Of a stretch of DNA of 36,384 nucleotides, positions 3,701 through 36,384 are shown piece after piece. This stretch comes from Macrostomum lignano (Eukaryota): assembly GCA_002269645.1 (NCBI GenBank), contig NIVC01004744.1, positions 1 to 36,384 of the forward strand, read 5' to 3'. The notes below the pieces were generated by a model. The model had not been told where the DNA came from. It saw nothing but the letters and a program-made list of their open reading frames with translations, and did no database searches. Numbering within the stretch: position 1 is the stretch's first letter; every line of letters starts with the position of its first letter. The translations under genes were made by a program, and so were the position numbers.

Positions 3701-6544
3701 TACGGCACCACCCAGCGGTTGTCAAAGGTGAACATCACCCTCTGACCGCCGCGCAGCTTTGCGAGCTTCGTCACCGTGAAGCCGCCCATCTCGACGGATC
3801 TGCGGCAGTAATGCGGGTAGCCATCCTCCTCCACCTTCGTGGCGGCCAGGAACTCCCTCGGGTAGCGCTTGCTGCACCTGCCTTTCTCCATGCACGCCGC
3901 GGCAGAGTTGAGCTGCTGCCCACAGGGACCATGCAGCATGTTCTCCGCCACCAGCTGATGCAGGTCGGCGTCGGCGACAGGGTCCGGGATCTCCGCGCTG
4001 ATGACGGCGTCGTACTGATCCGGCTTCAGCTTGTTCGCCAGCCACAGCAGCGCGTGCACGTGGGGAAGACCTGGATGTGGATAAAATTTAATTTTATTAA
4101 AATTTACGAAATTATGGAGGCGACAGTTAATGCAACACTTAAATGTTAAAATTTTCAAAAGTTCACACAAATTTCACACTTGCCTCGCTTCTGGTACTCC
4201 AGCGAGCAGACTCGAGCCAGAGTATCTCCAAACAGACTCTTCAGCCTGTTTAGGAAGGCCTTCTTTTTCAGCTCGAACACCCGGGCGGTAATGTCCGGCC
4301 GATCGACGGCAGTCTGCCCTGGAAGCAGCTCGGCCAGAATTTCCGGCCACTTCGGGTTGCATGTCATCGTCAGAAACAGGTCTGGGCGGCCAAAGGCGTG
4401 AACATACGCCATGGCATCCTGCTGACGCTCCAGACGGTACCGTGGACCTCCCACGTAGCTGGAAGTAAGAATGACACGCTTCCCGACTTCCTCCGGCCTG
4501 CCGTCGTCCTCGTGCAGCGCGTCTCGGAGACCCCGAAGACTTTCCGACACCAGATCCGTTTGGTGCTGCCGGATGTACGTAAGTCGCTCGGACTCGATCT
4601 TGGCAGCCTGGTCCACCAGGTACTGCTGGAAGAGCCGGCGACCGTACAGCAGGCTGTTAAACTGGCCTGGTCGCACCTGGATCAAGTAGGCGTAGTATTT
4701 CATCATGGTGATGCCTCGATCCTTCTTGAGCCCAATGTGCCAGCCGTCCTCGCCGTACGGAAGCAGCAGCACATACTCCAACGGATCGTAGGAGCGATGG
4801 GTCTCAGAGATCTCCTGGAGGCCTGTGGATACAGTTGGGTGTTTTAATGTACACCTGAAAAGCCTGAATAGTGTTTTATTATCTAACTTTACAGTGCAAC
4901 CCAAATTTTAAGTCTTATAACGCGCTTAAAGTACTTACCACCACCTCTCAGACGCAAAACCACGCTCCGCCATTGCGCCTGAACTACGCCATCAGTATCG
5001 CCAAGGTCCGTCAGGATGCCGACCTCACTGCACTCGGGCAAGTTGAAGCGTCGGACATGCTCCCCAGATGGGCGGGCATCGGGGTTGATCACGACCCTGG
5101 CGCTCTGCAGCTGCGGGTCGCTGCGCAGCAAGTCGACTGCGGACTTCAGGCTGCGCACGTAGCTGTTGCAGTCATGCAGAACAGCTTGCAGCTCCCGCGG
5201 CAAAGTGTCGTTCAGACCAGCCGTCCATTGCAGTCTGTTCTGCAGCTCTTGGTCCACAAAGAAGACCTGGCAGAACCTGGCCGCATCCCCCAGGTCCGGC
5301 AACAGGCTGCCGATCCGATGGTGCATCTGACCATGGAGGATGAAGCTGGGGTTCCACCCGGGCTGCTCACGCTGCCTGGAACCAAGCGAGGTCATGTGGA
5401 GCGCGCCGTTGTACTTCCTGATGTCCTTCAGGAACTGTGAGCTGAACGGATGCTCGCCAGTCAGCAGCCGCTTCAGAACATCAGGCGGGTCTCGGCGCTG
5501 CTCCAGGACGGTCTGTCAGTGGAATGAAAAAAAAACTGAAGTAGCTTTTATGCGGAGACGGGCTACAGCAAATCATGCAACTGTCGATGACTCCATAGGT
5601 GGTCAGAGGCTTGATACAGTACAGAGGCATAAATGAGGCAGCAATTCAAGTAAACTAAAACAATAAATATCAACTCACCTTTCCAGCATGGCAGCAAATG
5701 CTAGCTGGCTCGTCCTTCCAGCGTAGCCCGCTGCAGTGCGGACATTGGTGGTCCATGCGACCGAGCACATGTGGCTGGTGTGCCAGCTCCAGCAGTCTGT
5801 GGCAAAAAAGAAAGAGCATGAAAGACATGACTTGAAAATCCAGTTCTACATGCTGAAAGTTTAAAAAAACTCTTGAAGAATGAGCAGCCACACATAAGAA
5901 TAGCAGAATGAAATATCAGAACCCTACCTGTCTCGGCGCCACTCTGCCTGTGCGTGTACACGACGGTCGTGGTCGTCAGCGGACTCAGCATCGCGATGCT
6001 GACTCTGGCGCTGCCGCTGCGCCTCCAGGCGAAGCTGATGGAGCGCCTCGTCCTCAGCTACACGGCTTTCGGCTGTGCGCTGCCGCTGCACCTCCAGCCG
6101 ATGCTGACGGACCGCCTGGTCTTCGGCTTCACGGCAATCGGCTGTGCGCTGCCGCTGCGCCTCCAGCCGATGCTGACGGACCGCCTGGTCTTCGGCTTCA
6201 CGGCAATCGGCTGTGCGCTGCCGCTGCGCCTCCAGCCGATGCTGACGGACCGCCTGGTCTTCGGCTTCACGGCATTCGGCAGCACGCAACCGGTCGTGGT
6301 CCAGACGATGCTGGCCTTCCACCTCGCCTTCAGACTTACGACTTTCGGCTGTGTGAAGACGACTGGCCTCAAGACGATTTTGGTGCTGCATTTCGCTCTC
6401 AGCCTCGCGGCTCTCGGCCCTATGCTGCCGTTCCCGCTCAACGCGCGCTGCACGCTCATCGGGTGCCTCAGACGCCCTACGCTTCTTGGCATCTGATGCA
6501 GCGCGTGTAGACCGGGACAGGCTTCCTTTACCACGTTTCGGCAT
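797..6544 (-). CDS. Helitron Rep (HUH endonuclease)/PIF1-family helicase, 9 exons, ~1616 aa, one 1-bp frameshift near 3350
   Basis: Exons 6544-5928, 5796-5679, 5512-4939, 4822-4184, 4070-3233, 3145-2543, 2457-2156, 2044-1657, 1567-797 join in phase (4850 nt; +1 nt = 1617 codons). Motifs: FLKDIRKYNGALHM, YDPLEYVLLLPYGEDGW, LFQQYLVD, GRPDLFLTMTCNPKWPEI, EYQKRG|LPHVH (HUH), KYVVKY, GGTGKT (Walker A), IVWDEAPM, GDFRQL, FAMTIHKSQGQSL, HGQLYVALSR. Confidence 0.93.
6062..6280 (-). repeat. 69-bp (23-aa) coding tandem repeat, ~3 copies, in the charged N-terminus of RepHel
   Basis: Units begin at 6062, 6131, 6200 (partial at 6269); translate as ...ECREAEDQAVRQHRLEAQRQRTA... Confidence 0.9.
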
Positions 6545-6889
6545 TTTATTAAATAAGAAAATGGCGAGTAGCAAAAAATAAGTAAAATTAGGCAAACGGT
6601 ATATGGAAAGAATTCGGAGAGTTCTATTATGATATAGAAGGAAATGAAACTGAATTGAAAATTCGCATCATTAAGTAAGGGCCCAGTGTACACAATCTTT
6701 TATCCATAAAAAGCATTAAAATAATGTGCACGCAGCTGATGAGCTGCTAAGCCAATGCAAGGGACTGACTGATTAAAATCGCCGATAAAAAACCTACTGA
6801 AATTTGTCACCCAACCCCCCCCCAATACACTCAACTGATAGCTGGCTTAAATGTGCGAACGCAGCCCCCCAACTTTATCTATGCTGGTG

Positions 6890-14073: not shown

Positions 14074-17000
14074 TCAAGCGCATGTGTAGGGGATAACAAA
14101 ATCAAACATAATCTTAACAAATCCTTGGGTACTGTTCGTGTTGCCGCCAGTGGTGGCCACGCAGCCGCTACCGCCACAAAAGGAGCCGCCGCCTCCGCCA
14201 GAAAGATCGTCATCAAGTCCGGCTCCGCCTCCGCTGTAGCCGCCACCAGCTCCAGCGGCACCTTTGGTACCACCGTCGGCCGTAGCAGCTCCTCCGCCGC
14301 CACCGAAGCCGCCCAAGCCGTAGGAAGAACCTTGGCTGGAGGAGCCGCCAATCCAATTTTCATCTTTGCTACCACCTCCGCCACCATTTTCGCTACTGGT
14401 CGCAACGGCTGCTCTACCCTTCCAGCCGGCGCCGCAGCCACCGTAATTTTCGCCTGAGTCCGCACTAGACGGATCATTACTGCCCGGTTGTCCATTTGTG
14501 CCTCCTATACCGATCTCAAAGGGCTGCATAAAATGGTTGTGTGTTGTCGTGAGTAAAAAAGACTCAGTTTTAATAAGACAGTAAATTTATCAAGCATATT
14601 TTGTAAATATTTTTACCGTATTTTCCTTAGCTATATTCTTTTTAATAGTAACCATACGTATCGTTATAATTAATTGTAACATTCAATATTCTGCAATTTT
14701 TACTATAAGAAAAATATCAAGAAATGCTAAAAGTATTGTAGTAGCATTTTCTATTTTACATCTCAATCTTTTAGCTTTTCTCTATAGTACGAGCTATTTA
14801 TAGCGGTCGAGCCAAAGTGATAAAATTTTTAATATACAAGCTACAGCTCGATAAGTACTATAGCTAGCTACAACTAAAACTAAAACTACAGCAAGCTATG
14901 GGTCTTCAATACTTACCAGGCAAAGTATGATTCACTTTTAGAAATGCAAAAACCTCATTTCTACTACTAAGAACTACTAAAATGGATAAATAGAGTAGAA
15001 TGCGCATATAGTTTAATAGTATAGTAGAATGCGCTAATAGTATAGTATAATAGTATAGGAGTATAGTATAGTATAGTAGAATGCGCTATAATTTTTCACT
15101 ATAGCCAAATTTACATGTAAGTACTTTACGAATTTCACAACGGTGTCAAGATTTGATGCAACTCAGGTCCTGATACGGTTTATTCGAATTGTTTCTGGTC
15201 TCTTTTTGAACATTTTTAGTGAATACTTTGTGAAAACTTGCTGGGTTGTGATGACATTGAATCCTGCTTTAAAACTTAATTCTTTGGTCCTTTTCTAATC
15301 TACTTAGTAGACGGGGATCAACTAAATGAGAAGGCTTGTTTTGAGCTTTGTCAAAAGGCGTTTAGTAGCTATCAAAACTGATTTATTATCGAGCATTATC
15401 TAAACAAAGTGTCATAAAATTACCTCGCTTGAGCCGTAAGAGTTTGAACCGTTTCTTCCAGCCTGACCGGGGCGTCCTGAAGAAAAGTGTTTAACCTTTT
15501 TTCAGTGGATGTAAATAACTTTAGGTTTATTTAGTACCATTACGAGTATGCGGTCTGGAGCCAAATCACTATAAATATAGCAGACTAGGTTCGTGCAGAG
15601 ACTACGAGCTACCAAAGAAAAACTTGGCAAAATATAAATTAAATTTATTTCACCGATCTACTCTGGAGATAGTTTTTCACCATGTACGCGATAGCAAGTC
15701 ATTTAACTTCAAAGCTGACGAAATTTTTTAATTTGTGAAAGCGCAGATGTTTCTTTAAACAATGAAATTTAAAGCGTTCTGATTTTAAGTGTCAAGTCAA
15801 AATTGTGCCCTAAAGTTTATATACTTCGAATTAAGATATTTTGGAATATTCTTACTGATTAGTACGTATTGAAAAGGAAACTACTTAAAATGAAAAGGTA
15901 AACGAACCATCGTTGTCTCTGGAGGCTCCGCCGCCACCGCCAGCCGACATGAGCGGCTCACTGTCCGATACACGGTACACAAAACTTCCACCGCCGCCGC
16001 CGCTTCCAACATTTTCGGATATCGCGTGGCCACCAGCCTGACCAACGACAATGGACAGCACGCTGCCGGCCGTCAGGCTGACATTTCCAGCGACCAGGGC
16101 TCCCCTACCGCCATATTTTTCTCTGTCAAAGTTGCTACCACCCTTGGCTCCGGCAATCTCAATTCGATAACAGCCAGTCACGTTTATCGTTGTCTGCTGT
16201 ATGCTGCCGTTCTGACCAGTGCTGGTGTCTGAAATGTGTTGTCGAATTAATTTTTACTTAACTATGGTTACAAAATGCTTTTACGCTCGTAATACGAAAA
16301 GCAAGGCTTACTTGTGAAGAGAAGAGTGATGTTGGTGCTTAATATCAAATTAATCACAGCGTCGAAATTCTTCAGCTTGAAAACTTCAGAGCCAGGCTCT
16401 GTCCCCAGGACTCTGGACTCGCTAGATCCTTTTGAGACAGTCACCAGCCGGCAAAGACCGCTGCTCGGTCGGTACTCGAGAGCAACGCAGTCCCTCATCC
16501 GGCACAGAGTCAGGCAACCCTGCAGGGATTCCACTCCAGAGATGTTACTGACTTGGCTGCTGACTCCGGAGTTGATCGTAAGGACACCATTGTGCTGCGT
16601 GTAGCGAGCAGGATTGCAGGATCCTGCAAAGCAATTGTAGAGCGTTAAAAAAGCTGCACTTATGTAATCTCCTGGTCTCTGCTTCTCCTTGCAGGCAGGA
16701 TGCCTGTTAGTAGCACCGTCTGCACCAGTTGTGTAGGCCGCACGACTTGGCGCTGATGCTTAACTTGTCAGCCGGAGTCACGGACACCGCTAACGTTCAC
16801 TTAGAGTAGGGGTCGGCAAACTCCGGCCCGAGGGCCGCATGCAGCCCGTGAAGCCTCTCTCTCTCCGTCCCGTCGGGTAGAGAGTCTCTCTCTCTCTCTC
16901 GCCTCTCTCCTCTCTCCCCCTTTCTCCTCTCTCCCCTCTCTCCCACCTCTTCTCGCCTTTTCTCTACTCTCATCCTGTTTGTCGCGTCTCATCTCTCATC

Positions 17001-20054: not shown

Positions 20055-20411
20055 TCAGCGGCGTAGGCAAGGGGGGATATGGGGATGGATCCCCCCGTGG
20101 GCCTGGTCGGTGGGTTTTTCCGGAAACTGCGTAGCCAGACGTGAGGACATTTCCTTGAGTGTGAGGAAGGGATTTTCCTCCAGCGTCTCAGTCAGGAAGT
20201 CTCTCATCTCGTTGTCAGCCTTGCAATTTTCTTCTCTCCGACCGCCACGAGGTAGGGATTCAACTCTGCCATGGAGGCGGAACTCCGCAGCGATCCTAAA
20301 GGCGGACGCTCTCTTGATCTTGGGAATTTGAGCGGCAGCTAGGATGGTTGATCCATTGTTTACTGCGTCGATCAGACGCTGACGGTTTGCTGCAGGAATC
20401 GATGGTGCCAT
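20055..20411 (-). pseudogene. Truncated Tc1/IS630-like transposase, N-terminal DNA-binding part only
   Basis: MAPSIPAANRQRLIDAVNNGSTILAAAQIPKIKRASAFRIAAEFRLHGRVESLPRGGRR...ENPFLTLKEMSSRL: paired-like HTH, PRGG linker and second HTH; the frame ends before any DDE domain. Confidence 0.7.
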
Positions 20412-20791
20412 CACAGTGAAATCCAAGGGGTCAGATGCAACCCAAGGGGTGAAGAAGGAGAGCTGGCTGAGGGTCGGAGGGTTAGAGCGATATCTGAAGG
20501 CTTTCACACTCAGTCTCATATTGAGCGTCTTATTCTCATTTTGATATTCCATTTTTTAGTCTATGGCCAAGCCATTCCTGCAGCCAATACTGGGCATGCT
20601 CTGGCCGTGGCTAGCCTGGCCTTGCTTGCCCTCTGGTAAATAAACCAGATAACACCACAAGATAACATTCGCTCAAACAAGATAACATGCCCTATTCCGG
20701 TTATGCAAAATGTTATCTTGTATGAATCTTGTTTGCGTGACGAAATCTTACGTTTCCTTGTTTCAAACAAGATTCAAAAAGGATTTGCTGA

Positions 20792-21330
20792 CCAGATAAC
20801 AGTCGGGTAATTCATGCGAATCCTGCAGGGAAACATCGTGTTATCCTGTTTGTTATCTTGTTTGTTATCCTGTCTGGCAAACAGGATTCGTTGACCAGGT
20901 AACAGTCGGGTAATTCATGCGAATCCTGCAGGGAAACATCGTGTTATCCTGTTTGTTATCTTGTTTGTTATCCTGTCTGGCAAACAGGATTCGCTGACCA
21001 GGTAACAGTCGGGTAATTCATGCGAATCCTGCAGGGAAACATCGTGTTATCCTGTTTGTTATCTTGTTTGTTATCCTGTCTGGCAAACAGGATTCGCTGA
21101 CCAGGTAGCAGTCGGGTAATTCATGCGAATCCTGCAGGGAAACATCGTGTTATGCTGTTTGTTATCTTGTTTGTTATCCTGTCTGGCAAACAGGATTCGC
21201 TGACCAGGTAACAGTCGGGTAATTCATGCGAATCCTGCAGGGAAACATCGTGTTATGCTGTTTGTTATCTTGTTTGTTATCCTGTCTGGCATCAAACAAG
21301 ATTTCCTGATCAGATAACAGTCGGGTAATT
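20792..21330. repeat. Left subterminal array: 5 x 103-bp units plus a partial unit
   Basis: Units start at 20792, 20895, 20998, 21101, 21204 (CCAG(A/G)TAACAGTCGGGTAATTCATGCGAATCC...). Confidence 0.93.
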
Positions 21331-21557
21331 TATGATAATAAAAGGCAGAAGGCACCGACAATCAAATTTCGCAGTAAAGAAGCGTATAAAAAGTTGGTGC
21401 TTCAAGATGTTGTGAGAAGCATCTATTTAACAGCGGGGTGTCAACTAAACGGCATCTCAACATGAACGAAAACATCTGGAGAACAGTGTGGCATAAGTCT
21501 GAGTTTCGGGAGTCCAGTTATAAGTAGATCTACTTATACTGTGGATACCAATTGATA

Positions 21558-23183
21558 TTACTGGATTGGTGATCTGCTGCGACCTGGTGTATCAGCTGGC
21601 GAGCTCGGACCTGCTGTACTCGGACGCGACTCTGGCGGCAGTCGACGCGTGAGCCAGACGTTTGAAAGACCGGGTCGCGCCCGCGGACGGCGATTAATGA
21701 GACCGCCGACGGGGACTTGCATTATATGTCGGCGCAATGGAACGACTCTGTAGTATTAAGTTAAATTGAATGGCGATGGATGACAGTTTCTCCGACATAT
21801 ACACAGCTATAAAAAACACAGTAAGGTACATACACTCTCGATTGTCTAGCTCTAACAGACAGTGACGGTGTGCCGACAGGCATTGCCATATTATACGACC
21901 GTTCACAAGTAGCGTCAGCTGTGTCGATAGAAGTTTCATTCGTAGCATAGTCGTCATCCGGAAACAACTGGCTTTCGTTGATCGGCTGCTCGTAGACCGG
22001 AGACGAAGTGAATGTCGTGCCATCTGATGCGCCGGCTTGCGCGGCGATGGCTTCGTTGTGCAGTTGCGTCCACAAAATGCCGACTGCACTGGAAACAGCT
22101 CTTACCTGATTGTCTTTGCAATCCCGTGTGCCAACGGTAATATCCAACCGACTTGGCGTTGCAGATGTCGCTAGTGCGATGGACGATCGTCCAACGGCGT
22201 CATCAACTGCGTCGTTCGAAGCAGTGACACCCTCTGGAAACAAGTGGCTTTCGTTGAACGACTGCTCGTAGACTGGAGACGAAGTGAATGGCGTGCCATC
22301 TGAAGTATCCGCTTGCGTTGCGATGGGGTCCTCGTGCAGTTGCGTCCACGAAATCCCGGCTGCGCGAGGGAAATATGTTACTTGATTGCCGCCGATCGGC
22401 GGTGTATTAAAGCCAGCCCACCAGACAGACATTAGCGAGCCGCAGGGAGCAGCGATATAGGATGGAACTACGCCAGCAGTTCCGCTGGTACGACCTACTG
22501 GTTCCACTGGCAAATCAGCCAGAAATAGTTCCAGTCGTACTACCTCTTGACGCAAGTAGCTGCCCGTGCTGCAGCCGCCGCATGCTTGTCTACGGCAACG
22601 CGGACAGCGAGGTGTCGTGCAGTCGACAATCTACAGAATTAGTTGTATATAGCGGCTGGTTTCGTTAAGGTCAGTTAGTTCGATAAAAAGTAAAACAGGT
22701 TATACGTACGTATGTGCATCCCGTATATACGTGTAGGATGTTACTAGGTACAATATTGACAGAGCGTTTGTCTGGACGACCGGGCGGTGCAAAAATTGTC
22801 GGTCGGCGCAACAGAATAACATCGCCACGACGCAACGGCCCAATCTGCGAGCGTACGCTGCCTTGGACACTGCAACCAATCATCCCGGTTGGGTCGCATG
22901 CATCAATTGTAAAAGCCGACGAGGATGACGCTGAGCAGATCTGCTGGTCGGTAACTCGTTGAATAAGTAGCAACAATATCGGAATCCTGTTCGTTGAGTC
23001 GCGAATGTGGCCGACAGTACAGAACTCTGACAGCTTCGTGCACAATTCGATCCCGATGTCGCCGATGGCGTTTCTCCAAGCAGGTGTATTCCATATGGAC
23101 TCCGAAAACGCATACTTTGCGTCGTCGGTACTCAGTCGCAGCGTGCTTAATGGACCAACCGTGCGATTTGAAGCGCTGGACAT
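21558..23183 (-). CDS. HROB/MCM8IP (DUF4539)-like OB-fold protein with a Cys cluster and low-complexity tail; probable exons 23183-22710, 22630-21834, 21747-21558
   Basis: WNTPAW..AIGDIG...NRIP.LLLLI...DPTGMIGCSVQGSV....LRRGDVILLRRPTIFAP......VNIVPSNILHVY matches the HROB OB-fold pattern (DPTG.M.G.VH, L..G.VLLL, F.P, N.T..N..HIY). Donor GTACGT at 22709 and acceptor at 22631 join in phase to ORF 21761-22555. The last exon and the true start are less certain. Confidence 0.72.
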
Positions 23184-24252
23184 CTGTAACAGAGAGAAGT
23201 GGAGGTTGTTCGGTGAGACGGCGTGGCCCGAAAACAGCGTCGGACACCAGCGATCATGAGATGGGAGACAGGATTGAAAGGACGTTGCATGGGTATTTGT
23301 TATTACCATTGACTTAACATAACTCCGCATATAATACAACTAACTCGGCACCCAGACACAAGTCTGTTGGGACAGAGTCCAGACCTCTAGCAATTGATTT
23401 AAATCAAAACGGGTCGTCCCCTAGAACTCGCACTACCACTTTTTCGGAATCTCGGCAAGACAGTACGTATGAAATGACTTAAAAGACGTAATAAAAATGT
23501 TCAGTATTTTTCATTTATAGTGGTGCCAAAAAGCACGACAATAAAGACATTAAAAAAGCAGCTAGGAAAAAGATTGGAAAAGCTGTATGTGTTATAAGTA
23601 ATACTTTAGAATATTATTAGTACTGTTAACGTATGTGGACGTTGTAGATGAAACTGACGTACGTGCTGCACTCGTTGATCCATGTTTACGGGGGAAACAC
23701 GTGCCCGAGGGCCCTCCTAGTACTGTAGGAGATGAATTCGTGTTATAAAAATAGATACTGAGTCACACAACATTACGTACTTTCTTAGAGAACTCATGCC
23801 TTCATTAAGTCAAGTAGGTGCACCGAATATGGTTCTAGTTCCCAAGGTATAATAGAGTTACACAGTATTACGTGCATTGGGGCAATTAGAATTCCCACGT
23901 ATAAGTACGGACTCCTGGATCATTTTTCGCGACAAGAAGTTGTGTCTGGCCTTTCTAAGTGCACGCCTACTTCAAATCGCAAGTCGCACTGAACATGAAA
24001 CAGTAAACCGTAAACGTTGAACAGAAAAAAAACTGGAAAACTGAAATATGAAGCACACAAAGATGAATGGCAAAATGCCGGACGAAATTTCAAACGATTA
24101 TCGTCCTGAATTAAAATAGCAGATCTGCTATGGGACGAAGTACTGTGTAAAAAAACAAACAAAAACAGTAAGTTCATTGTGCGAAAACAATTTATAGTAT
24201 TAATCCGTTATGATCCGTTATCCTATAAAACTACTCAACGCCGACAGTCAGC

Positions 24253-25896
24253 CTAAGGTTCGGCGGCTCCCTCGACGGCTTCCTCGGCTGTGCCGGCCAG
24301 CTGTGTCTTCTTAGCGGCGCGCCATCTTTTAACAGCGTCGGATTTTTTAGCCTTTTCTTCCGGAGTCTGCCTGCGTTTTATGGCCGTCTCGCGGCACTGA
24401 TAGTGCTGACGCCGAAACTCCTTTTCGTCTATGTTTACGCCAACGTGCTTGGCGTATGCCATAGCCACGGCTAGCTTGCCGTCGTCACATCGCTGGCCAC
24501 CTACTTGACCCTTGACGCGACCCGAGCAAGTCTCCCGCAAAAACTGGTCCTCGCTGAATAAAGCGCGAAGGACCGCTCGTATAAATGAGCCATTAGCGGT
24601 AGCCAATTTTTTTGCATCTGGCCGATCGGCCGATGCCAGTTGATGAATGGCTTCCGTTCGCTGCTCGATTTCGCGCTTGTCTTTCGGCTCTACTAGTATT
24701 CTCCTAAAGCCGTTGTCGTTTGACAGGCGAACCAATGCGCTTGGGTTGACTTCACGTGGCCGCATTGAAACAATAGCGTCGGCAGCCTGCACAGCACCCA
24801 TAGTCTGCTTCATTTGCGCCGACTGGTCAGTGGACCAATGGCTGTGGGCATATATACCAACTTCTCGAGGTTCGTCATCGATTAAAATGGGACCAGTTTC
24901 GTCTTGCCGATCGGCATACTCTGCGTCGACACTATCAGAGCCTCCGATTGTGCATCTGGCAGCATGTACTGCACTGAGTAGTCGCTCACACCGGCGCTCA
25001 ACCACGCTCATAACCTGCTGCATTTTGGCGTCTCGACTGGAGTCAGTGTTCCCGTTCTGCGCCATTTGTTCTTCAAGCGAATGCAGTTGAGCGCGAAGTT
25101 GATCAACTTCGTTCAACAACTGTGTGTTACTTTGCGCCAGATGTGCCGAACGTTCCCTCTCATTTTCAATTTCATTTTCCAGAGCCCGAATGCGATCACC
25201 TGTGATGAAGTGCGTTCAGATAAATATATAGAGTTGCTCTTATAGAATAATTTATTGACTACGTATTACATACAAATATATTGAAATTACGCAGTAAACC
25301 AATAGTTACGCACGTTGCTCGTCCACAATGGAAACATGCGAGCGCAATTGGTTGGTTAGTGCACAACACGAACCACAAGGATTCGGCGCACTATTAGTTT
25401 GCAACGGGCCCGACGCGGATGCGACGCGTTGCGCAGCAGCAATGCTACTGTAGGGTCCACTCCATATAGTGGCGCCATATCTTGCGGCCGAGGCAGTCTT
25501 TGTTTTGGCTGTCACGACGACAATGCGACAACCAACAGTGGGTTGCTCATGACGATCGTCAAGAGCAACAATATCGGTGCTAAGTATCGCACCTCTGTCG
25601 TTGTTGCTGTCGTAAATGACCGCCCACGCGGACGAATCTGCAGATTTGTAACCGCGCATTCCGTCAGGGGCACATTCTGCACTTGCACTTTTATTTTGGC
25701 GGTTCTTCTTCTTTGTTGACCTCGCGCTGTCGGACCCATCGAATATTTCCGACTGAATTTCCGACGAAGCTTTCGGGACTGTCGATTGGTCGTTTGGTCG
25801 TACACCCTTGCGCGGTCGCTTTTCGGCTTGTTCTGCGTCTATATCCACTGGATGTTCGTCCTCTTGTAAGTGAGTAACGCAGTTCTTCTTGCCCAT
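24253..25896 (-). CDS. Coiled-coil + C-terminal BEN-domain protein, ~509 aa, exons 25896-25314 and 25199-24253
   Basis: Phase-1 intron 25313-25200 joins the two long ORFs. Heptad region RIRALENEIENER...LLNEVDQLRAQLHSLEEQ. C-terminal FIRAVLRALFSEDQFLRETCSGR...DDGKLAVAMAY...FRRQHYQCRE fits the BEN pattern (F.R.LL..LF..E.L...T..G...LD..K). Confidence 0.7.
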
Positions 25897-26676
25897 TACT
25901 TTCCAAATCAAGCAGACGACTGGAAAACGATTTTTAACAGCATATTTACTTCAAATATCGCATTGTACAATGTTTAAGAATAGAAAAGGACGCTCTCAAG
26001 ATACGATCCTAATTTCCACAAAATCTTACGTACACGCTAAAGTTAGATCTAAGGAATTTCGTTATAGGGAGAGTGGACGGCCAACCAATCGATGTGGTGA
26101 ACTACATGCTAGGTTCGATGCAACGTTGCAATCACGAAACACGAGACATAGTGTAATGATGGACGCAAAATGCGTGAATTGCGCATATTTACTGATTGGT
26201 GTATGATACGAGGTCCGTTATGATTCATTTTAATGAAAAAATTAAAACGGCAGATTTCATACATATTTAAAGTGATTAAGATTCATTCACATTGTCGTCA
26301 TAGTGGTTGTGGAAGTATACTGGTGTATAAACGAATGACCATTGGTGTAAAGATCGTGTAAACTTGTGAACCTTCGCCTTATTTAATGCCTGCGTGAATG
26401 AGTCTTATAACGTTCATAGATAAAGTTGAAGGCGTTTATAAATAGGGTGGCAACATACAGTGGAACAGATTTTATCTCAGCAATGAGCGGTACTATACTT
26501 GACGTTACAAAGACTGCTTAATCAGTTCGTACAAATTGTGGGGTATACGCAAACAAACGTTTGAGGTGACAGCTTACTTAAAATTGTCTTTTCCGCGAAC
26601 TTATTAAGCAACGTCAATACATTACAATGGGCTTGGACAGTACAAGGAGCACACAGGCGTATAGGCCCGAGCAAAT

Positions 26677-29457
26677 TCACGAAAAAGATAGTTGCGCATG
26701 CGGCAGCGCTACTACATGCGTGTCGCTGACAGCACATGATCCCACAATCATTTTGATAGGAACACGAATAACATAGCCGCCAATGTCACCGAAGGGATCG
26801 CAAGCCAGCTTCCGGACGTGGATGAGTCGGCAACCTCGATTTGGCGCATCAACCGGAACGGCCACGAGCACTGATAGAGGATCCTCCATCGGTGCGGCCA
26901 GACGGAGCGGTTGCATCAGTAGATGTAGATCGCCTACATCCTCATCCTCTTCCAATTCGTAGACGCGACCAAAGTCTATCGCTGACCGACCAGCGTCAGT
27001 CCAGACGGCAACAAAGCTGGAGACAACTCTTTTCTGTGACATAGATTGTCTGAACACATCGATCATTGTGCCGTCATGCAATGTAACTCGCTCCCATTTA
27101 CTCGGGTTTCCAGCATATCTTCTAGGTCGTGAAACTGTGCCACACCTGATGTTCTTCGTTGTCATGCGTCTGGCTACTGGCGTGTCAGTCAACTGAAGAT
27201 CTTCAGTTGTCTTGTCCGCCAATTGTGCCACTAATAGCTCAGTTTGGATGACGTTCGCTATTTCTACGTCGGTCGCTCGCGAACCGCGTATGCGTTTACG
27301 AATACTACAATGAAATGACTCGAACAGCGATGCTGATAACTGGTGTATTGGCCCTGCCAACTCTGCGTGCATCAGGGTATGCACGCATACCTGATGAGCG
27401 TTATAAGTCAATGCCCGATTCGAGAACATCATCGGGAGTAGGCGATGGAAGTACGATAATGTCGTTCGCACATGTGTCAGCTCGCGGATCGAGGAACCAA
27501 CGCATGACAATGCGAACATTGCGGACGATAGAGCCAGCAGTAGCTGATAGTACCTGCCGTGATCATAGCATGCAAGGAAATCTTCCAGTACCATCGGACC
27601 GTAAGCTAACATCCACATTTCAAAATCGTGGCCCCGATACCTCTTCAATAGGTTTAGTGACCTTGGTCCGCGTCTCTGAACACTACGCGGCACTCGAATT
27701 CTTGCGAGCCGTTCATCAATCAGGCTAATCCGTCGGTACAAATCGGGGTTTCTCGACGTCTGGTCTGGCTTTTGATGTCGTATTAGGAACAACTGGTACA
27801 TCAGATAGCCGGTCAGACCAGCACAGGTTTGGTGCAAATAACACGGCGGGCAACCCCTAATGTAGTCGAACCCGGCCAGTTCACTCAGTGGAGACTTGGC
27901 TCGCACTCCAAGCGTGTCTGTCTTGTCGTCAGTACGAGCCACGCGCATTCTGTCTCTTTCATATTCGTGCCGATCGGCAAGCATGTTAGTGTCGGTGACG
28001 CACCGAAACTCTGTCTGTGTACACCCACGTCTGACAGCGGCGTTCAGCATAGCGTTGGTGATTTCGAGCGGAAACATACGTCCGGATCCAAACGGCTGTT
28101 TTTTTGTTCGAATATAACATTTTTCGCATCCGTATATCGCGTTGAATCGCTTCATACCTAGTGCATCCGCTCGTGCTGGGGCATCGAAGATGGCCTGGAA
28201 AGGGTGCAATCTAAGGATTTGCTTATCGCCGTGTCCGTCTACATATTCGACGCCTTGGAACCTTAGATCGTTCAACAGACGAACAACAATTGGTAGGAAA
28301 CTTTCCGCATGCAATTTAACGTGTCCAGCCCAGACTCCGCATACAATCACGTACTTATACTTCATGCGTTCGTACACCTCTGTTACAGACATGTACACTG
28401 GACAGACCTCGACGTTACTGCTTTTCCGCAACGAAAATCCGTCTGAACATAGCGTGTACGACAGATCGCATCTACGTCGAGGTTCAATCGACGCTAGGAA
28501 CTCCCTGTACAGTGCACTGTTGACGTAGTGTAACTGACGTCTAAACATGTCGTCTGACGGTTGATCAGCCGGCCACACAACAGTCTCCAGCATTCCGCGT
28601 CGGATGCAGCGCCGAAGTTGATCTTTTGCGTCACATAGCCAGAAGCTTGCAACTTCTTCGCTACCGCAAGTTGAACACGTCGGCGCGTTTCGACCGAGTC
28701 GATTTTGTCTACACTTCGCACACACAGTGTAGCATTCTGAGGTCGGTAATGCAGATCTGCATTCTTGTCGAAAGCGAGCTTTCACAACCTCAGAAAGTAC
28801 ATGCGGCGACCGCGGCACATCAGCGCTAGGCATCAGTTTGCGTAATAAACCTAGTAGTTCTCTTTTCTGCTCTCTGCATGCTTTCCACTTGGAGCAGTAG
28901 TCCGCAATTAATGTGGCCGCTTCTCCTGTCGTTAGAAGCACATCCGCTTCGGCTATTTTATGAAATGGTCTGTCTATGAAAATAGGATCAGCTCTCGAAC
29001 TGGCTGGATCGCTCTGGTCGGATGCGTCGCTGCCCTCCTCATTGAGGCTGGCTGGGTCGATCTGGTCGGATGCGTCGCTACCCTCTTCGTTGAGACTGGC
29101 TGGGTCGCTCTGGTCGGATGCGTCGCTGCCCTCCTCATTGAGGCTGGCTGGGTCGATCTGGTCGGATGCGTCGCTACCCTCTTCGTTGAGACTGGCTGGG
29201 TCGCTCTGGTCGGATGCGTCGCTGCCCTCCTCATTGAGGCTAGGGACCAGAGTGTTTGATGGCAGATCTGCCAGATTCGCGCGTTTGTCGCGTAATCGAC
29301 GTTGCCGTAATGCTTGCATTCTCTGCTGGCCAGTCAATGCGGGTGCGGCCCTTTTACGTATGCCAAGCCGCCAATTTCTCATATAGTGCGTTGCATTGTG
29401 CGTTTCGTCCGTCTGTTCCGGCCCTGCAGACTGTGCTGAGGTGCCGGCCTTGTCCAT
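26677..29457 (-). CDS. CACTA/EnSpm-family DDE transposase, 926 aa, intronless
   Basis: Motifs in the expected order: CSDGFSLRKSS, VCPVYMSVTE, CGVWAG, FDAPARA, FNAIYGCEKC, GVRAKSPL, CYLH, IDERLARIRVP, YGPMVL, TYNAHQ, SASLFESF (Transposase_21/DUF4218-type). Confidence 0.88.
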   Translation of the reverse strand: MDKAGTSAQSAGPEQTDETHNATHYMRNWRLGIRKRAAPALTGQQRMQALRQRRLRDKRANLADLPSNTLVPSLNEEGSDASDQSDPASLNEEGSDASDQIDPASLNEEGSDASDQSDPASLNEEGSDASDQIDPASLNEEGSDASDQSDPASSRADPIFIDRPFHKIAEADVLLTTGEAATLIADYCSKWKACREQKRELLGLLRKLMPSADVPRSPHVLSEVVKARFRQECRSALPTSECYTVCAKCRQNRLGRNAPTCSTCGSEEVASFWLCDAKDQLRRCIRRGMLETVVWPADQPSDDMFRRQLHYVNSALYREFLASIEPRRRCDLSYTLCSDGFSLRKSSNVEVCPVYMSVTEVYERMKYKYVIVCGVWAGHVKLHAESFLPIVVRLLNDLRFQGVEYVDGHGDKQILRLHPFQAIFDAPARADALGMKRFNAIYGCEKCYIRTKKQPFGSGRMFPLEITNAMLNAAVRRGCTQTEFRCVTDTNMLADRHEYERDRMRVARTDDKTDTLGVRAKSPLSELAGFDYIRGCPPCYLHQTCAGLTGYLMYQLFLIRHQKPDQTSRNPDLYRRISLIDERLARIRVPRSVQRRGPRSLNLLKRYRGHDFEMWMLAYGPMVLEDFLACYDHGRYYQLLLALSSAMFALSCVGSSIRELTHVRTTLSYFHRLLPMMFSNRALTYNAHQVCVHTLMHAELAGPIHQLSASLFESFHCSIRKRIRGSRATDVEIANVIQTELLVAQLADKTTEDLQLTDTPVARRMTTKNIRCGTVSRPRRYAGNPSKWERVTLHDGTMIDVFRQSMSQKRVVSSFVAVWTDAGRSAIDFGRVYELEEDEDVGDLHLLMQPLRLAAPMEDPLSVLVAVPVDAPNRGCRLIHVRKLACDPFGDIGGYVIRVPIKMIVGSCAVSDTHVVALPHAQLSFS
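29002..29241 (-). repeat. 5 x 48-bp (16-aa, SLNEEGSDASDQ(S/I)DPA) acidic coding repeat in the transposase N-terminus
   Basis: Alternating variants give a 96-bp higher-order period. Confidence 0.93.
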
Positions 29458-30559
29458 CCTGGAGAAGTCAGATTTCGACTGTTCTGTAACGAAACGGTAT
29501 AATAATAATAATCGGAGGAACTACATGACATTCATGTATGCAATAGGTTTAGATGAATGTGTCAACTCTATATAGACGTGGGTAGCTATTCTAGATCACT
29601 ACGGTATCCTACTTAAAATGAGGGGATCAATGACTTCTGCTAATACTACTGATTATTGATTGTGATTGATTGATTAGTGATACTGATTGTTACTACATAC
29701 GATTGTTCTAACATATGGGCGGATGAACGGTGACACTTGAATTTTTGCAATAGAAACCATGACTAGATAGTTCAATGAAATGAATGCAAGGCAATGCAAT
29801 CGGGATCTGTAATAAAACGGAAGCACACGTTTTCGTAAAAAACAAGTTAAGTAACAAGAGGTGGAATTTGCTTACTGGGAAATGCATAAAAGTCAATAAT
29901 GAGATAGGATGGATACGAATAGTTAAAAGAAAACATAATTGCACAAATGTAACGCGTAATAATGTCATATTAAAGTACTTAGGTTTCGATATGTTCTCCG
30001 TTTGTTGGCTGGCAGATTTGGCCTGCTAGATTGTTCATCTGCTGCTATAGCTACCAAACGGTGCTATATTCACTCTGCTTTTATCTTCACTCTGATGTAA
30101 CGGCGCTCAACGGCGCTCAACTGCACTGTCCTCAGTTACTAATAAATGAAAAAATGGTACGAAACTGCAAGCATCAAATGCCGAACTGACAAGTAAGTAA
30201 TAAACGAAAAAATACTTTACTAGTTACTTGGGTACGCGGGTTTGGCATCCGATATTCGAATACGGCCAAACCTCTGTACTTTGGCTGGCAGATCTGCCAG
30301 CCTCCGCACAGACACCAGACTGGCCACATTTGCCCTTCTAGATTGTTCAGAAGTCCGTTCTGACAGTTTCTGTGCACGCGTATTCAATTTCAACCGATAA
30401 CAATTCACAGCTAGAACAGGTACATAACATACGTCCAATTACAGTCGGAACTGGGCCTTGGATCGGGGCAGGTGCACTTTATCCTGCACGAACACCTGGG
30501 ACTGCAGAAGCAGTGCACTCGATGGGTGCCCCGTTCGCTGTCACAGAAGCAGGGACGGG

Positions 30560-30992: not shown

Positions 30993-33093
30993 TCACAAGT
31001 CACAAATTAGTTCATGAACCGGGCAATCGCCGTCCCTGTGCGTACACTCTGGACCAAAGTCCTTCGGTATGGAGCACAGCAACTCGTCGATCGACGGGTT
31101 GTCTGTGCTACACGCGGCATCGGCATGTCGAGTGGCAAGCAGGCGCGGGACGCTGACCCTGTCAGGCAGTAGGCCCATGCTGTCGAAAGCGTCTCTGCGA
31201 CGCGTCGCCTCGTCGCCGGCGCACTTTAACAGTTCAACGCTGGGCTCGCCGGCATTAAAATTTAAATAATGGCCTTCTACGACCACAGTCATGATGCTGT
31301 AGCATAATACAATATGCTGCAGACACCTCAGCTCGTTTGGCCCAGCTTTAAGCAGTCTGGCGCAGGCGTCGCCGAGCAGTGCGTCAGTTATTCGGCGACG
31401 ACCGCCGCCACTGTTTCCCTGACGCCCGCCAAGCTGCTCAGTATACCCAAACTCCATGAACAGCGCCTGCGATGCCGTGCACAGCGGTGCATCGCAATCG
31501 ACACTGTCCTGCATACTGTGGTATGCAGGCTTTGATTTTGAAGGCAGTTTAAACGCTTTCAGCGTATGCCGAAGCATATACTGGGCCGCGTCAAAGTTAG
31601 AAGTGCCGTGTCGATGGTTTAGAGTCTGATGCAGACCCAATACAAGCACGGCAAGACGCTGGGCTAGTAGTCCGTTCTCTATGTGCAACACCATTGTTGA
31701 CTTGGCCAAGCAGATCTGCTGGCCCTCGTTGATGAAATGATTGGTTAAAGGCTGCACCAAACGTGCTACATTGGCCGGCCAGTCGAAAATTGACACTGCA
31801 GTTAGTGCATCGCACCCGCATTGTACGGCGCGTATGCGCGCCTCTTCCCTGCCTGCGGAGATGGCATTTGCATGACGCTCTCCGAGTGTCAGGCGGCGAT
31901 TTGGTGGGTTTAGCGGCTGAAACACTAATTGTTGATTTTGTACACAAAGTCGAAAAACGTCCTCACAGTGCGTGCCGACGAAGCCGCTAATGTCACGGTC
32001 GGCCATCGATGTACTGACACCGCGAATAGCATATGCTAATGGCTGGCTAGTCAGCATTGAGAACCGCCGTTCAACTGTGTCAAATGGCGTGCCACATTCA
32101 TCTCCCGCGTCCACTATGGCGCACAGTATACGGACGATTGACTCTATACACATCATCTGCAAAGGTATTATTGTATGCGCGTTTATCAGTAGCATTGCTA
32201 TGGCATTACAAGCAGTATATGAATAGTCGAATTCTACTTACGCGTGCGTCGTCCATAATTTCAGCGAAAGTTTTTCTAATCGATTCGACGGCGGCAGCGT
32301 CTGCAGGGTCGACGGATGCAGCTGCGACAGGAGCGCAATACTGGCCGCGACGCTGGGCGTTGGCTGGCAGATCTGCCGGCCGCCGCCCATGTGTCGGCTT
32401 TGCCACCTGGCCGGAAGGTGTTTGCGCTGATGCCGCATTTCTTGGTGGTCCCCTGCTAGGACAGTCGTTCTGAGCTGCTGCAGCTGCGATAGGTGCGCGA
32501 GATTGGCCGAGACGCTGGGCGTTGGCTGGCAGATCTGCCGGCCGCCGCCCATGTGTCGGCTTTGCCACCTGGCCGGAAGGTGTTTGCGCTGATGCCGCAT
32601 TTCTTGGTGGTCCCCTGCTAGGACAGTCGTTCTGAGCTGCTGCAGCTGCGATAGGTGCGCGAGATTGGCCGAGACGCTGGGCGTTGGCTGGCAGATCTGC
32701 CGGCCGCCGCCCATGAGTCGGCTTTGCCACCTGGCCGGAAGTGGTTTTCGCTGATGCCGCATTTCCTGGCGTCTCTTCATCGACGACGATGTCGCTGCCG
32801 TCGACGTGCAGCAGCCCTTTGCAGTGCACATTCACGAATTCGCGCACACTAGCGCAGCCAACGCTCTGGACTGCCTCAACAAGCGTTTGGCGCCGGACAG
32901 CTTGGCACGTTTTGTTGATTTCTGTCAAACTTTTACGAGTATTCCTTTGTTCAAATGATTGCTGTGGCCGAGGTACACGAATCATTGTTATTAGCTGTTC
33001 GCGCAGCTGCGTGACCGAGTAGTCGACACAGTTTGTACCAATGGTGGTTTGCATTTCGCAGTATGATGCAAGGTCTGAAATTGCAACATACAT
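30993..33093 (-). CDS. ~671-aa protein with two LOTUS/OST-HTH-like domains separated by a repeat linker, plus a C-terminal domain of unknown type; exons 33093-32242 and 32156-30993
   Basis: Perfect GTAAGT donor (32241) and TTTGCAG acceptor (32157) join ORFs 32206-33093 and 30993-32195 in phase 0. Two related segments: KSLTEINKTCQAVRRQTLVEAV.SVGCASVREFVNVHCKGLLHV and VRILCAIV...CGTPFDTVERRFSMLTSQPLAYAIRG...ISGFVGTHCEDVFRL. The gene model is well supported; the LOTUS call is a by-eye match. Confidence 0.6.
32343..32770 (-). repeat. ~2.6 x 162-bp (54-aa) coding repeat
   Basis: GACGCTGGGCGTTGGCTGGCAGATCTGCC at 32349, 32511, 32673. Confidence 0.93.
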
Positions 33094-33542: not shown

Positions 33543-33857
33543 GCTGCCTTGAACCACACTAGAAGCGAGGATTGATTATCCGTCGCAGGTCAGCTTATCA
33601 AAGCTGCCTTGAGCCACACTAGAAGCGAGGATTGATTATCCTTCGCAGGTCAGCTTATCAAAGCTGCCTTGAGCCACACTAGAAGCGAGGATTGATTATC
33701 CGTCGCAGGTCAGCTTATCAAAGCTGCCTTGAGCCACACTAGAAGCGAGGATTGATTATCCGTCGCAGGTCAGCTTATCAAAGCTGCCTTGAGCCACACT
33801 AGAAGCGAGGATTGATTATCCGTCGCAGGTCAGCTTATCAAAGCTGCCTTGAGCCAC
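33543..33857. repeat. 60-bp satellite array 1 (5 units + partial)
   Basis: GCTGCCTTGAGCCACACTAGAAGCGAGGATTGATTATCC(G/T)TCGCAGGTCAGCTTATCAAA head to tail, no spacers. Confidence 0.95.
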
Positions 33858-35436
33858 AACAGATATGGTTACCGACCGTTGTAGTCTGTATAGACTACTC
33901 GCTTGACTTGATCTGCTCACGGCTGGTGCAACTGCAAACGCCTTAGACAAACCAATGGAGCATGCACCGACAAAAATCGGGTTAGCGTCTATCTTAATAG
34001 GAAAGTTGCTTTGCATACTGGGCCAGATAGAGCTATTTGGAACCATGCCACAGTCTCCGTCTAGACACCCAGCTGTGCCAAACAATATGGTTGGCTGACT
34101 ATGCTTCTAAGCGTCAAATATGACGATAGAATCATTCAGCCGGTTGACACACTAAGCAGCTTTGATAGACTACATGCCAGTGGTAGTCAAACCTCTCGCA
34201 AACAATCAGGGCGCAACAATTTTTCAATTGTCACCTGTACGGAGGATGGGCACAGCCTCACATTACGGACGCTACAGTGCCGCCGTAAAGCAGATCAATT
34301 CACCTTGCACTTTCGAGGCTTTATTATCCCTCGGATTAAAGATTGATCCGCCTAGTCAAATAAAAGTGACTACTCTTAGCCGCTGCCTTGAGCCACACTA
34401 GAAGCGAGGATTGATTATCCGTCGCAGGTCAGCTTATCAAAGCTGCCTTGAGCCACACTAGAAGCGAGGATTGATTATCCGTCGCAGGTCAGCTTATCAA
34501 AGCTGCCTTGAGCCACACTAGAAGCGAGGATTGATTATCCGTCGCAGGTCAGCTTATCAAAGCTGCCTTGAGCCACACTAGAAGCGAGGATTGATTATCC
34601 TTCGCAGGTCAGCTTATCAAAGCTGCCTTGAGCCACACTAGAAGCGAGGATTGATTATCCGTCGCAGGTCAGCTTATCAAAGCTGCCTTGAGCCACACTA
34701 GAAGCGAGGATTGATTATCCGTCGCAGGTCAGCTTATCAAAGCTGCCTTGAGCCACACTAGAAGCGAGGATTGATTATCCTTCGCAGGTCAGCTTATCAA
34801 AGCTGCCTTGAGCCACACTAGAAGCGAGGATTGATTATCCGTCGCAGGTCAGCTTATCAAAGCTGCCTTGAGCCACACTAGAAGCGAGGATTGATTATCC
34901 GTCGCAGGTCAGCTTATCAAAGCTGCCTTGAGCCACACTAGAAGCGAGGATTGATTATCCGTCGCAGGTCAGCTTATCAAAGCTGCCTTGAGCCACAACA
35001 GATATGGTTACCGACCGTTGTAGTCTGTATAGACTACTCGCTTGACTTGATCTGCTCACGGCTGGTGCAACTGCAAACGCCTTAGACAAACCAATGGAGC
35101 ATGCACCGACAAAAATCGGGTTAGCGTCTATCTTAATAGGAAAGTTGCTTTGCATACTGGGCCAGATAGAGCTATTTGGAACCATGCCACAGTCTCCGTC
35201 TAGACACCCAGCTGTGCCAAACAATATGGTTGGCTGACTATGCTTCTAAGCGTCAAATATGACGATAGAATCATTCAGCCGGTTGACACACTAAGCAGCT
35301 TTGATAGACTACATGCCAGTGGTAGTCAAACCTCTCGCACACAATCAGGGCGCAACAATTTTTCAATTGTCACCTGTACGGAGGATGGGCACAGCCTCAC
35401 ATTACGGACGCTACAGTGCCGCCGTAAAGCAGATCA
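33858..35436. repeat. Near-identical 440-bp direct duplication (33858-34297 and 34997-35436), each copy following a 60-bp array
   Basis: Constant offset of 1139 bp; the ORF track also shows identical ORFs at 33816 and 34955. Confidence 0.93.
34382..34996. repeat. 60-bp satellite array 2 (10 units + partial)
   Basis: Same unit as array 1, starts at 34382 and every 60 bp to 34982. Confidence 0.95.
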
Positions 35437-35976
35437 GTTGTCTCATTAGGGCGAGGTTTCATTACCCCTCGCTTCTTAAGAGGAATTAGCGCCGCTGACC
35501 AAACGGATGCCAGGGATTGCCTGATGGGATAACCATTTGCTGGGGTCTGTATTCAGCGGTTTTCCATCGGAGGCTTCCTCTCAAAATCCCCATGGTACTT
35601 GTAATGGATGCCCGACTGATTCCCACTGGTCCTAAAATTTTTCCGGATCATCACCGCCTGGTACTTGGCTGAACTTCGGCTCAAGGGGAGCTGATCTGGA
35701 TGATTTTTCCGGATCACTGGGGAATTCCGACTGAAGTCTCGAAATCTCACCCGGAGCATTTTCATCTGGAATCCTACTGAAATTCGGTCTACACCCAGAA
35801 TTCAGTAGAGTTCTGGGTGAAAACTTGACGGAAAATCCAACCGGAACAGTTTCCTTTTCCCAAAATACTACCAGATCATATTTCTGGACCTTTTTCCGGG
35901 AAAAAAGTGCTGTTCCGTGCCAAAAAAACTGATTCGGGCTTCATCAGAAATAATAAATTAAAAATCGGGCGAAAAT

Positions 35977-36384
35977 CCGATTCAAACAAGATTCAGTCAA
36001 ACCAGATAAACATAGAAATATCTGGTGGCGAATCTTGTACTGTTATCTGATTTTCAAACAAGATTCGCGCATGTTATCGGGCGAAATTCCGATTCAAACA
36101 AGATTCAATCAAACAAGATAACAAAAAATATCTGGTGGCGAATTTCTACTGTTATCTGATTTTCAAACAAGATTCGCACCATGTTATCCTGGTGAAATTC
36201 CGATTCAAACAAGATTCAATCAAACAAGAAAACAAGAATTATCTGGTGGCGAATCTTGTCATGTAATCTGATTTTCAAACAAGATTCGCGCCATGTTATC
36301 TGGTGAAATTCAGATAACTCACCAGATAACAGTCAAACAAGAAAACAAAAATTATTGGTGGCGAATCTTGTCATGTAATCTGAT
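35977..36384. repeat. Right subterminal array: ~111-112-bp units, continuing past the window end
   Basis: CCGATTCAAACAAGATTC at 35977, 36089, 36200; shares CAAACAAGAT, GTTATC/GATAAC and GCGAATC with the 103-bp left array. Confidence 0.88.

Follow-up and report, generated by a model that had tools for sequence, protein, structure and literature searches.

Genes and features of the locus

The window, by which we mean the whole 36,384-nt stretch of Macrostomum lignano DNA analyzed here, contains a LOTUS-like gene that is cargo of a ~16-kb, CCC-ended DNA transposon of the CMC/EnSpm type (Table 1). The first-pass annotation had called this gene transposon-encoded, and it does sit between the termini of an element whose copies, judged by their flanks, occupy at least seven independent insertion sites. 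The limits of the element, drawn from alignment of these flanks, put its right end just past the window, with a TG after it in C1602 and C2423 (the same insertion); 2-bp target duplications appear as TG/TG at the window site and as TT/TT in C1362, and C24 does not fit. We take short CCC inverted termini, a 2-bp duplication and subterminal repeats, all of which the element has, to be characteristic of CMC/EnSpm transposons, and the transposase presumably carries CACTA-type DDE catalytic motifs; its only Pfam match, to DUF4218, falls under the cut-off (E=0.043).

Alongside these genes the element carries an HROB-type ORF, to which nothing matched in a scan of 40 sister stretches, and an accessory gene whose product ends in what we take to be a BEN-like domain, with no match in Pfam. 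In at least 9 of 10 sister stretches (L362-L371) the BEN-like gene is found on the downstream side of the transposase, and it is far more constant among the sisters than the LOTUS gene. Upstream of the latter, a 60-bp unit forms two arrays at window positions 33543-34997, inside a 1139-bp duplication; other copies of the element match the DNA beside these arrays and, within the arrays themselves, little or nothing.

Table 1. Coordinates of the LOTUS-like gene, its parts and the transposon that carries it (window positions)
Feature	Position	Strand	Remarks
Exon 1 (aa 1-284)	33093-32242	-	852 nt; ATG at 33093
Intron	32241-32157	-	85 nt; GT-AG (GTAAGT...TTTGCAG), phase 0
Exon 2 (aa 285-671 + stop)	32156-30993	-	stop at 30993
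Domain 1 (aa ~27-106)	32776-33015	-	likely a diverged minimal LOTUS winged helix
Ghxph motif (aa 79-87)	32833-32859	-	in 6/6 rows of the domain-1 alignment
Tandem repeat linker	32317-32769	-	162-nt / 54-aa unit, 2.8 copies; 1-3 units among copies
Domain 2 (aa ~285-366)	31911-32156	-	possible second LOTUS-like domain, without Ghxph
C-terminal domain (aa ~370-583)	31260-31901	-	no known family; in sister genes too; conserved QCGC...WP block
Left terminal inverted repeat	20629-20660	+	begins CCC; TG directly before
Left subterminal repeats	20775-21334		103-bp unit
Right subterminal repeats	35964-36384		112-bp unit
Transposase, CMC/EnSpm-type	26677-29520	-	open 947-aa frame; classed by the termini, the 2-bp duplication and presumed catalytic motifs
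Accessory gene, BEN-like	24253-25950	-	likely two exons (2 ORFs); both correspond to a single 529-aa frame of sister C2475
HROB-type OB-fold cargo ORF	22671-23339	-	PF15072, E=4.3e-9, over cut-off

The proposal that two separately listed ORFs form one spliced gene is borne out: joining them across the intron yields a 671-aa frame with no internal stops, the junction is seen in sequence data, and the splice sites are retained in other copies. The exact skip of 32157-32241 occurs in one of six sequencing runs, in a single contig of X3 (depth 6.8, with 30 letters on the shorter side of the joint), and contigs of X2, X4 and X6 retain the intron unspliced. Because the RNA origin of X3 is a guess and the run also covers intergenic DNA, this amounts to a single supporting contig and gives no measure of expression. 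Six diverged copies retain the region, all with the AG and five with the GT; in the four closer copies, insertions of 14-46 nt fall within the intron; and the ATG is conserved in all six copies that extend to it. The extreme C terminus of the protein (30996-31040, minus strand) bears a C-x-H-x4-C-x-x-H arrangement, present in most copies, that could bind metal.

The two segments flanking the repeat linker had also been described as related to each other. The paired motif is indeed present, but the mutual likeness of the segments is borderline, with 223 of 5000 shuffles scoring as high and hhalign giving 1.7% (E=0.029).

Copies and selection

Searches of the 764-Mb eukaryote assembly that holds the window returned 15 DNA matches to the LOTUS-like gene, the window's three identical copies being a single insertion. 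Against three diverged copies, dN/dS was 0.31-0.32 over 477-500 non-linker codons, and the same range, 0.31-0.32, was obtained against the most diverged subfamily over ~200 codons; separate values for domain 1 of C3262 and domain 2 of C1362 reflect misaligned deletions and were discarded. The gene has therefore been under purifying selection during the spread of the family, and most of its other copies are now broken.

Related transposons and the C-terminal domain

The transposase core gave 136 matches in the genome (131 of 369 candidates scored), and its surroundings were surveyed upstream in 30 stretches and downstream in 10, each of up to 10 kb. A LOTUS-type gene was present in 2 of the 30 upstream stretches, C2475 and C2013, and most related transposons thus seem to manage without one. 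In C2475, whose transposase core is 53% identical to that of the window, a 676-aa open frame upstream of the transposase comprises a LOTUS match (Pfam OST-HTH, E=2.6e-4 and 21.2 bits, below the cut-off of 23.8), a repeat linker and a C-terminal domain; C2013, with 43% core identity, has a broken gene of like make-up. C2475, C2013 and the window agree in their gene order (LOTUS gene, transposase, BEN-like gene), and the LOTUS-bearing gene thus occupies the same position in the sister lineages. Further copies of the sister-type gene are indicated by own-genome searches that returned 46 and 20 matches.

Profiles were built from the sisters alone, with the window's family and all host loci left out. 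The sister N-terminal profile matches host LOTUS domains at 93% (E=2.8e-7) and Egalitarian (Egl) domains at 1.2%; it also matches domain 1 of the window protein (4.2 bits, 4 of 1000 shuffles; hhalign 20.8%, E=0.0011, over 17 columns), a match carried by some 14-17 residues. The sister C-terminal profile matches the window's C domain (8.1 bits, E=7.9e-5, 1 of 1000 shuffles; hhalign 4%), and in multiple alignment the C domains are collinear, with 25% identity across ~210 residues. Homology to the sister genes is made likely by these two independent matches, which keep their order and come from genes that share a location in the element. The C domain has no relative in Pfam, the PDB or the protein databases searched. 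A degenerate tandem RNase III, considered as an identity for this domain, was rejected, with no profile match in any test.

On the host side, the domains closest to the sister LOTUS domain belong to a multi-LOTUS gene (17.5 bits) in which we discern by eye three LOTUS-like segments and a Tudor-like exon, with no transposase nearby. In the PDB, a profile of the transposon domains retrieved no LOTUS structure at E<=10.

Several other arrangements were encountered among the related loci. At G000:C340:318368-323079, genes of two different subfamilies, each combining LOTUS and the C domain, stand 3 kb from one another, and the 20 kb examined there contains no transposase match. Near-identical transposase copies at G000:C872 and C5059 (L377, L378) are missing the LOTUS gene upstream, and L378 contains unrelated ORFs that look Polinton-like by eye. 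In the C862 stretch (L342:2923-3759), a sister transposase has upstream of it an ORF that, again by eye, looks like an AlkB-type dioxygenase.

Domain 1, a probable diverged LOTUS winged helix

We consider domain 1 probably homologous to LOTUS. It contains Ghxph, given in the accessible part of PMC2848206 as the defining insert motif of the family, placed before the last helix of the domain. An extended form of the pattern, composed after domain 1 had been seen, occurs in 117 of 120 LOTUS matches, themselves picked by a profile that contains the motif, as against 2 occurrences in 4,692 control residues.

The first-pass annotation had proposed comparison with OST-HTH profiles and structures, and here the outcome is divided: direct comparisons are weak or at chance, the sister profile provides a bridge to LOTUS, and the modeled fold is of the winged-helix class. 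The window protein has no match to OST-HTH (PF12872; Pfam cut-off 23.8 bits), and none of the 44 matches of a PF12872 search of the genome lies inside the element. Against a profile of 10 host LOTUS domains, domain 1 scored at chance (306 of 1000 shuffles), with 349 of 1000 for a deeper, MARF1-heavy profile and 0.3% by hhalign against host LOTUS; a whole-domain scorer placed 14 of 314 control windows above it with the host profile and 34 of 314 with the deep one.

An AlphaFold model from six aligned rows (mean pLDDT 49.6; 57-71 over residues 61-108) consists of three successive helices and a terminal hairpin, a predicted winged helix, and nearly all of its top matches in a fold search are winged helices, none of them significant. 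LOTUS domains of TDRD5 (Z 4.8, rmsd 2.8, 58 aligned), MARF1 (Z 4.7, rmsd 2.9, 56 aligned) and Tejas (Z 4.4, rmsd 2.5, 53 aligned) rank 4, 9 and 21 of 48,161, and the first domain of Egalitarian is the best of the Foldseek candidates (Z 5.5, rmsd 2.3, 59 aligned). All Z-scores are below 6, and DNA-binding winged helices (DtxR-like, Z 5.7; IclR, Z 5.1) score as well as LOTUS and Egl do, so that the model indicates fold class only. With 11 K+R and 11 D+E, domain 1 is not basic.

Domain 2 and the tandem reading

Domain 2 may be a second LOTUS-like domain gained in the window's lineage only, a reading that we favor by a narrow measure. A home-made whole-domain scorer with the host profile ranks it above all 314 real-protein control windows, and the host profile gives 2.1 bits (22 of 1000 shuffles); the deeper profile is less favorable, with 72 of 1000 shuffles and 5 of 314 control windows exceeding it. 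As the scored region was picked for its resemblance, these whole-domain and profile figures, those for domain 1 included, do not stand as corrected probabilities. The Ghxph motif is found in none of six rows, the sister LOTUS profile scores domain 2 at chance (186 of 1000 shuffles), and the intact sister C2475 has no counterpart of it. The domain is acidic, and a structure model of exon 2 (pLDDT 36) matches generic helical bundles only.

The earlier description of a protein with tandem LOTUS-like domains is thus supported in part. A LOTUS relationship is upheld through domain 1 and the sister transposons and not mainly through the second segment, on which that description had leaned; this segment fits the whole-domain profile but lacks the motif and the tie to the sisters, leaving domain 1 as the better supported of the pair and the tandem arrangement as only likely.

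Searches for relatives

No real homologue was found for exon 2 in a set of 5.8 billion sequences or for the domain-1 alignment among the longer proteins of that set. The window protein gave a single match, repetitive and spurious, among 1.84 billion representatives, no homologue in metagenome and viral contigs, nothing real in phages (one match at E=1), no match by sequence in the PDB, and 0 of 7 in exact look-ups. Among the titles and opening lines of abstracts of openly accessible papers that pair LOTUS or OST-HTH with transposons, none describes a transposon-borne LOTUS domain.

A proposed role on the element's RNA

We posit that the gene encodes a conserved, spliced transposon accessory protein in which a minimal LOTUS domain is joined to a novel domain and which is predicted to act on the RNA of the element; we put the probability of this reading at roughly 0.45. 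The LOTUS domain, we infer, was captured from a TDRD5/7-like host gene and would have entered the transposon long ago, and the gene likely descends in part from a LOTUS domain of the host's anti-transposon germ-cell machinery. Once captured, the domain could (i) bind the element's own transcripts in germ or stem cells or (ii) bring the protein into germ-granule-type RNPs, where the novel cysteine-containing C domain would serve as the effector, protecting or promoting transposon transcripts. A role on the RNA side is suggested by the known biology of the LOTUS family as set out in the available portions of PMC2848206 and PMC7498356, the latter reporting that LOTUS domains bind G-rich RNA.

Compared with LOTUS/OST-HTH proteins (TDRD5/TDRD7, that is, Tejas/Tapas, as well as Oskar and MARF1), the window protein shares the winged-helix prediction, the presence of Ghxph in domain 1, a sister gene whose LOTUS domain is clear, and the arrangement of several domains spaced by a flexible linker. 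It differs in being encoded by a DNA transposon, in having no detected Tudor, NYN or SGNH domain, no eLOTUS α5 and no direct Pfam match, and in its fusion to a domain that belongs to no known family. By descent, domain 1 probably belongs to LOTUS, though it falls below the Pfam threshold.

With a second gene under selection beside the transposase, the element also resembles transposons that encode accessory proteins, such as VANC of VANDAL and TnpA, the accessory protein of En/Spm. VANC and miR820 of rice CACTA are among the anti-silencing examples in the accessible part of a 2019 review (PMC6719617), and TET/JBP on fungal transposons is described in what is available of PMC12730594. As represented there, the review covers three plant anti-silencing cases, acting on DNA methylation or through small RNAs, and knows of none against the piRNA pathway; the window gene, in contrast, has a domain of the animal germ-granule/piRNA machinery. 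It is conceivable, if unlikely, that the captured LOTUS domain and new effector of this transposon clade form a piRNA-pathway antagonist that shields element transcripts; if so, the antagonist would be encoded by a transposon. A LOTUS domain under selection in three transposon lineages offers a concrete gene on which to test the question of piRNA anti-silencing, and even without such activity it would represent germ-granule machinery captured by a transposon, together with a new conserved domain family.

Alternative roles

The main rival to an RNA-side role is that the winged helices took on DNA binding, with the 103/112-bp subterminal repeats as one possible target, and that the protein is a TnpA- or VANC-like factor in transposition or chromatin anti-silencing. 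Ties of the domain 1 model with DtxR-like and IclR folds, the subterminal arrays of the element and the sequence-specific targeting of their own DNA by known transposon anti-silencing proteins, as described in the accessible text of PMC6719617, all fit this possibility, which we nonetheless judge to be on the unlikely side. The ancestry of the protein is LOTUS, a family tied to RNA and RNPs; domain 1 is not basic and domain 2 is acidic; and the element already has a BEN-like gene. We take that gene to be the likelier DNA binder.

The first-pass annotation had envisaged a decoy or inhibitor of piRNA silencing, which we cast as a decoy that binds Vasa and jams piRNA amplification. The host has both Vasa and eLOTUS genes, and the fit of domain 2 to host LOTUS takes in its first half with helix 2, which the available portion of PMC5458760 gives as one of two sites of Vasa contact in eLOTUS. 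According to the same source, however, Vasa binding requires the α5 extension of eLOTUS, and in our alignments this C-terminal extension was not found after domain 1 or domain 2: domain 1 and the C2475 domain lead straight into the repeat linker, and the helix that follows domain 2 lines up with the beginning of the C domain common to the sister genes. The transposon LOTUS domains thus look minimal, which lowers the decoy model, and a broad block of piRNAs would be costly to host fertility, by an argument made in the accessible part of PMC6719617. We therefore depart from the earlier interpretation and regard a Vasa decoy as improbable. As a separate observation, Vasa-like genes of the assembly occur in tandem clusters at G000:C646, C296 and C4514, the C-terminal domain of host Vasa being placed on G000:C646 near 204-205 kb, and the Vasa-like L190 combines RGG repeats and CCHC knuckles with an acidic Trp end.

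An adaptor resembling Egalitarian, routing element mRNA into oocytes or germline cells, appears very unlikely. The ED1-ED3 domains of Egalitarian (PF23713) are LOTUS-like winged helices joined by flexible linkers, as presented in the available part of PMC13186709, and the first of them gave the best Foldseek-candidate match to domain 1; yet profiles of host Egl domains miss domains 1 and 2 (463 and 330 of 2000 shuffles, respectively), the sister domain sides with LOTUS over Egl in the comparison given above, and the exonuclease-like module was not detected in the protein. An Egl-type (PF23713) origin was accordingly rejected by sequence, with no profile match to Egl domains.

That the gene is a mere passenger, a piece of host sequence picked up by the element and carried without function, as its mostly broken copies and splicing in one contig only might suggest, is highly improbable: a dN/dS of ~0.3 largely refutes it, the gene is retained in three lineages with transposase cores 43-53% identical, and in the stretches checked the C domain turned up in no host gene apart from transposon copies.

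Other features of the window

Outside the element, the window contains a PAN-domain exon at 16268-16759 and a Tc1/IS630-like helix-turn-helix fragment at 20055-20555, both on the minus strand. A Helitron Rep/helicase gene of several exons occupies 797-6700 on the same strand, with matches to Helitron_like_N (E=1.5e-52) and PIF1 (E=4e-33).
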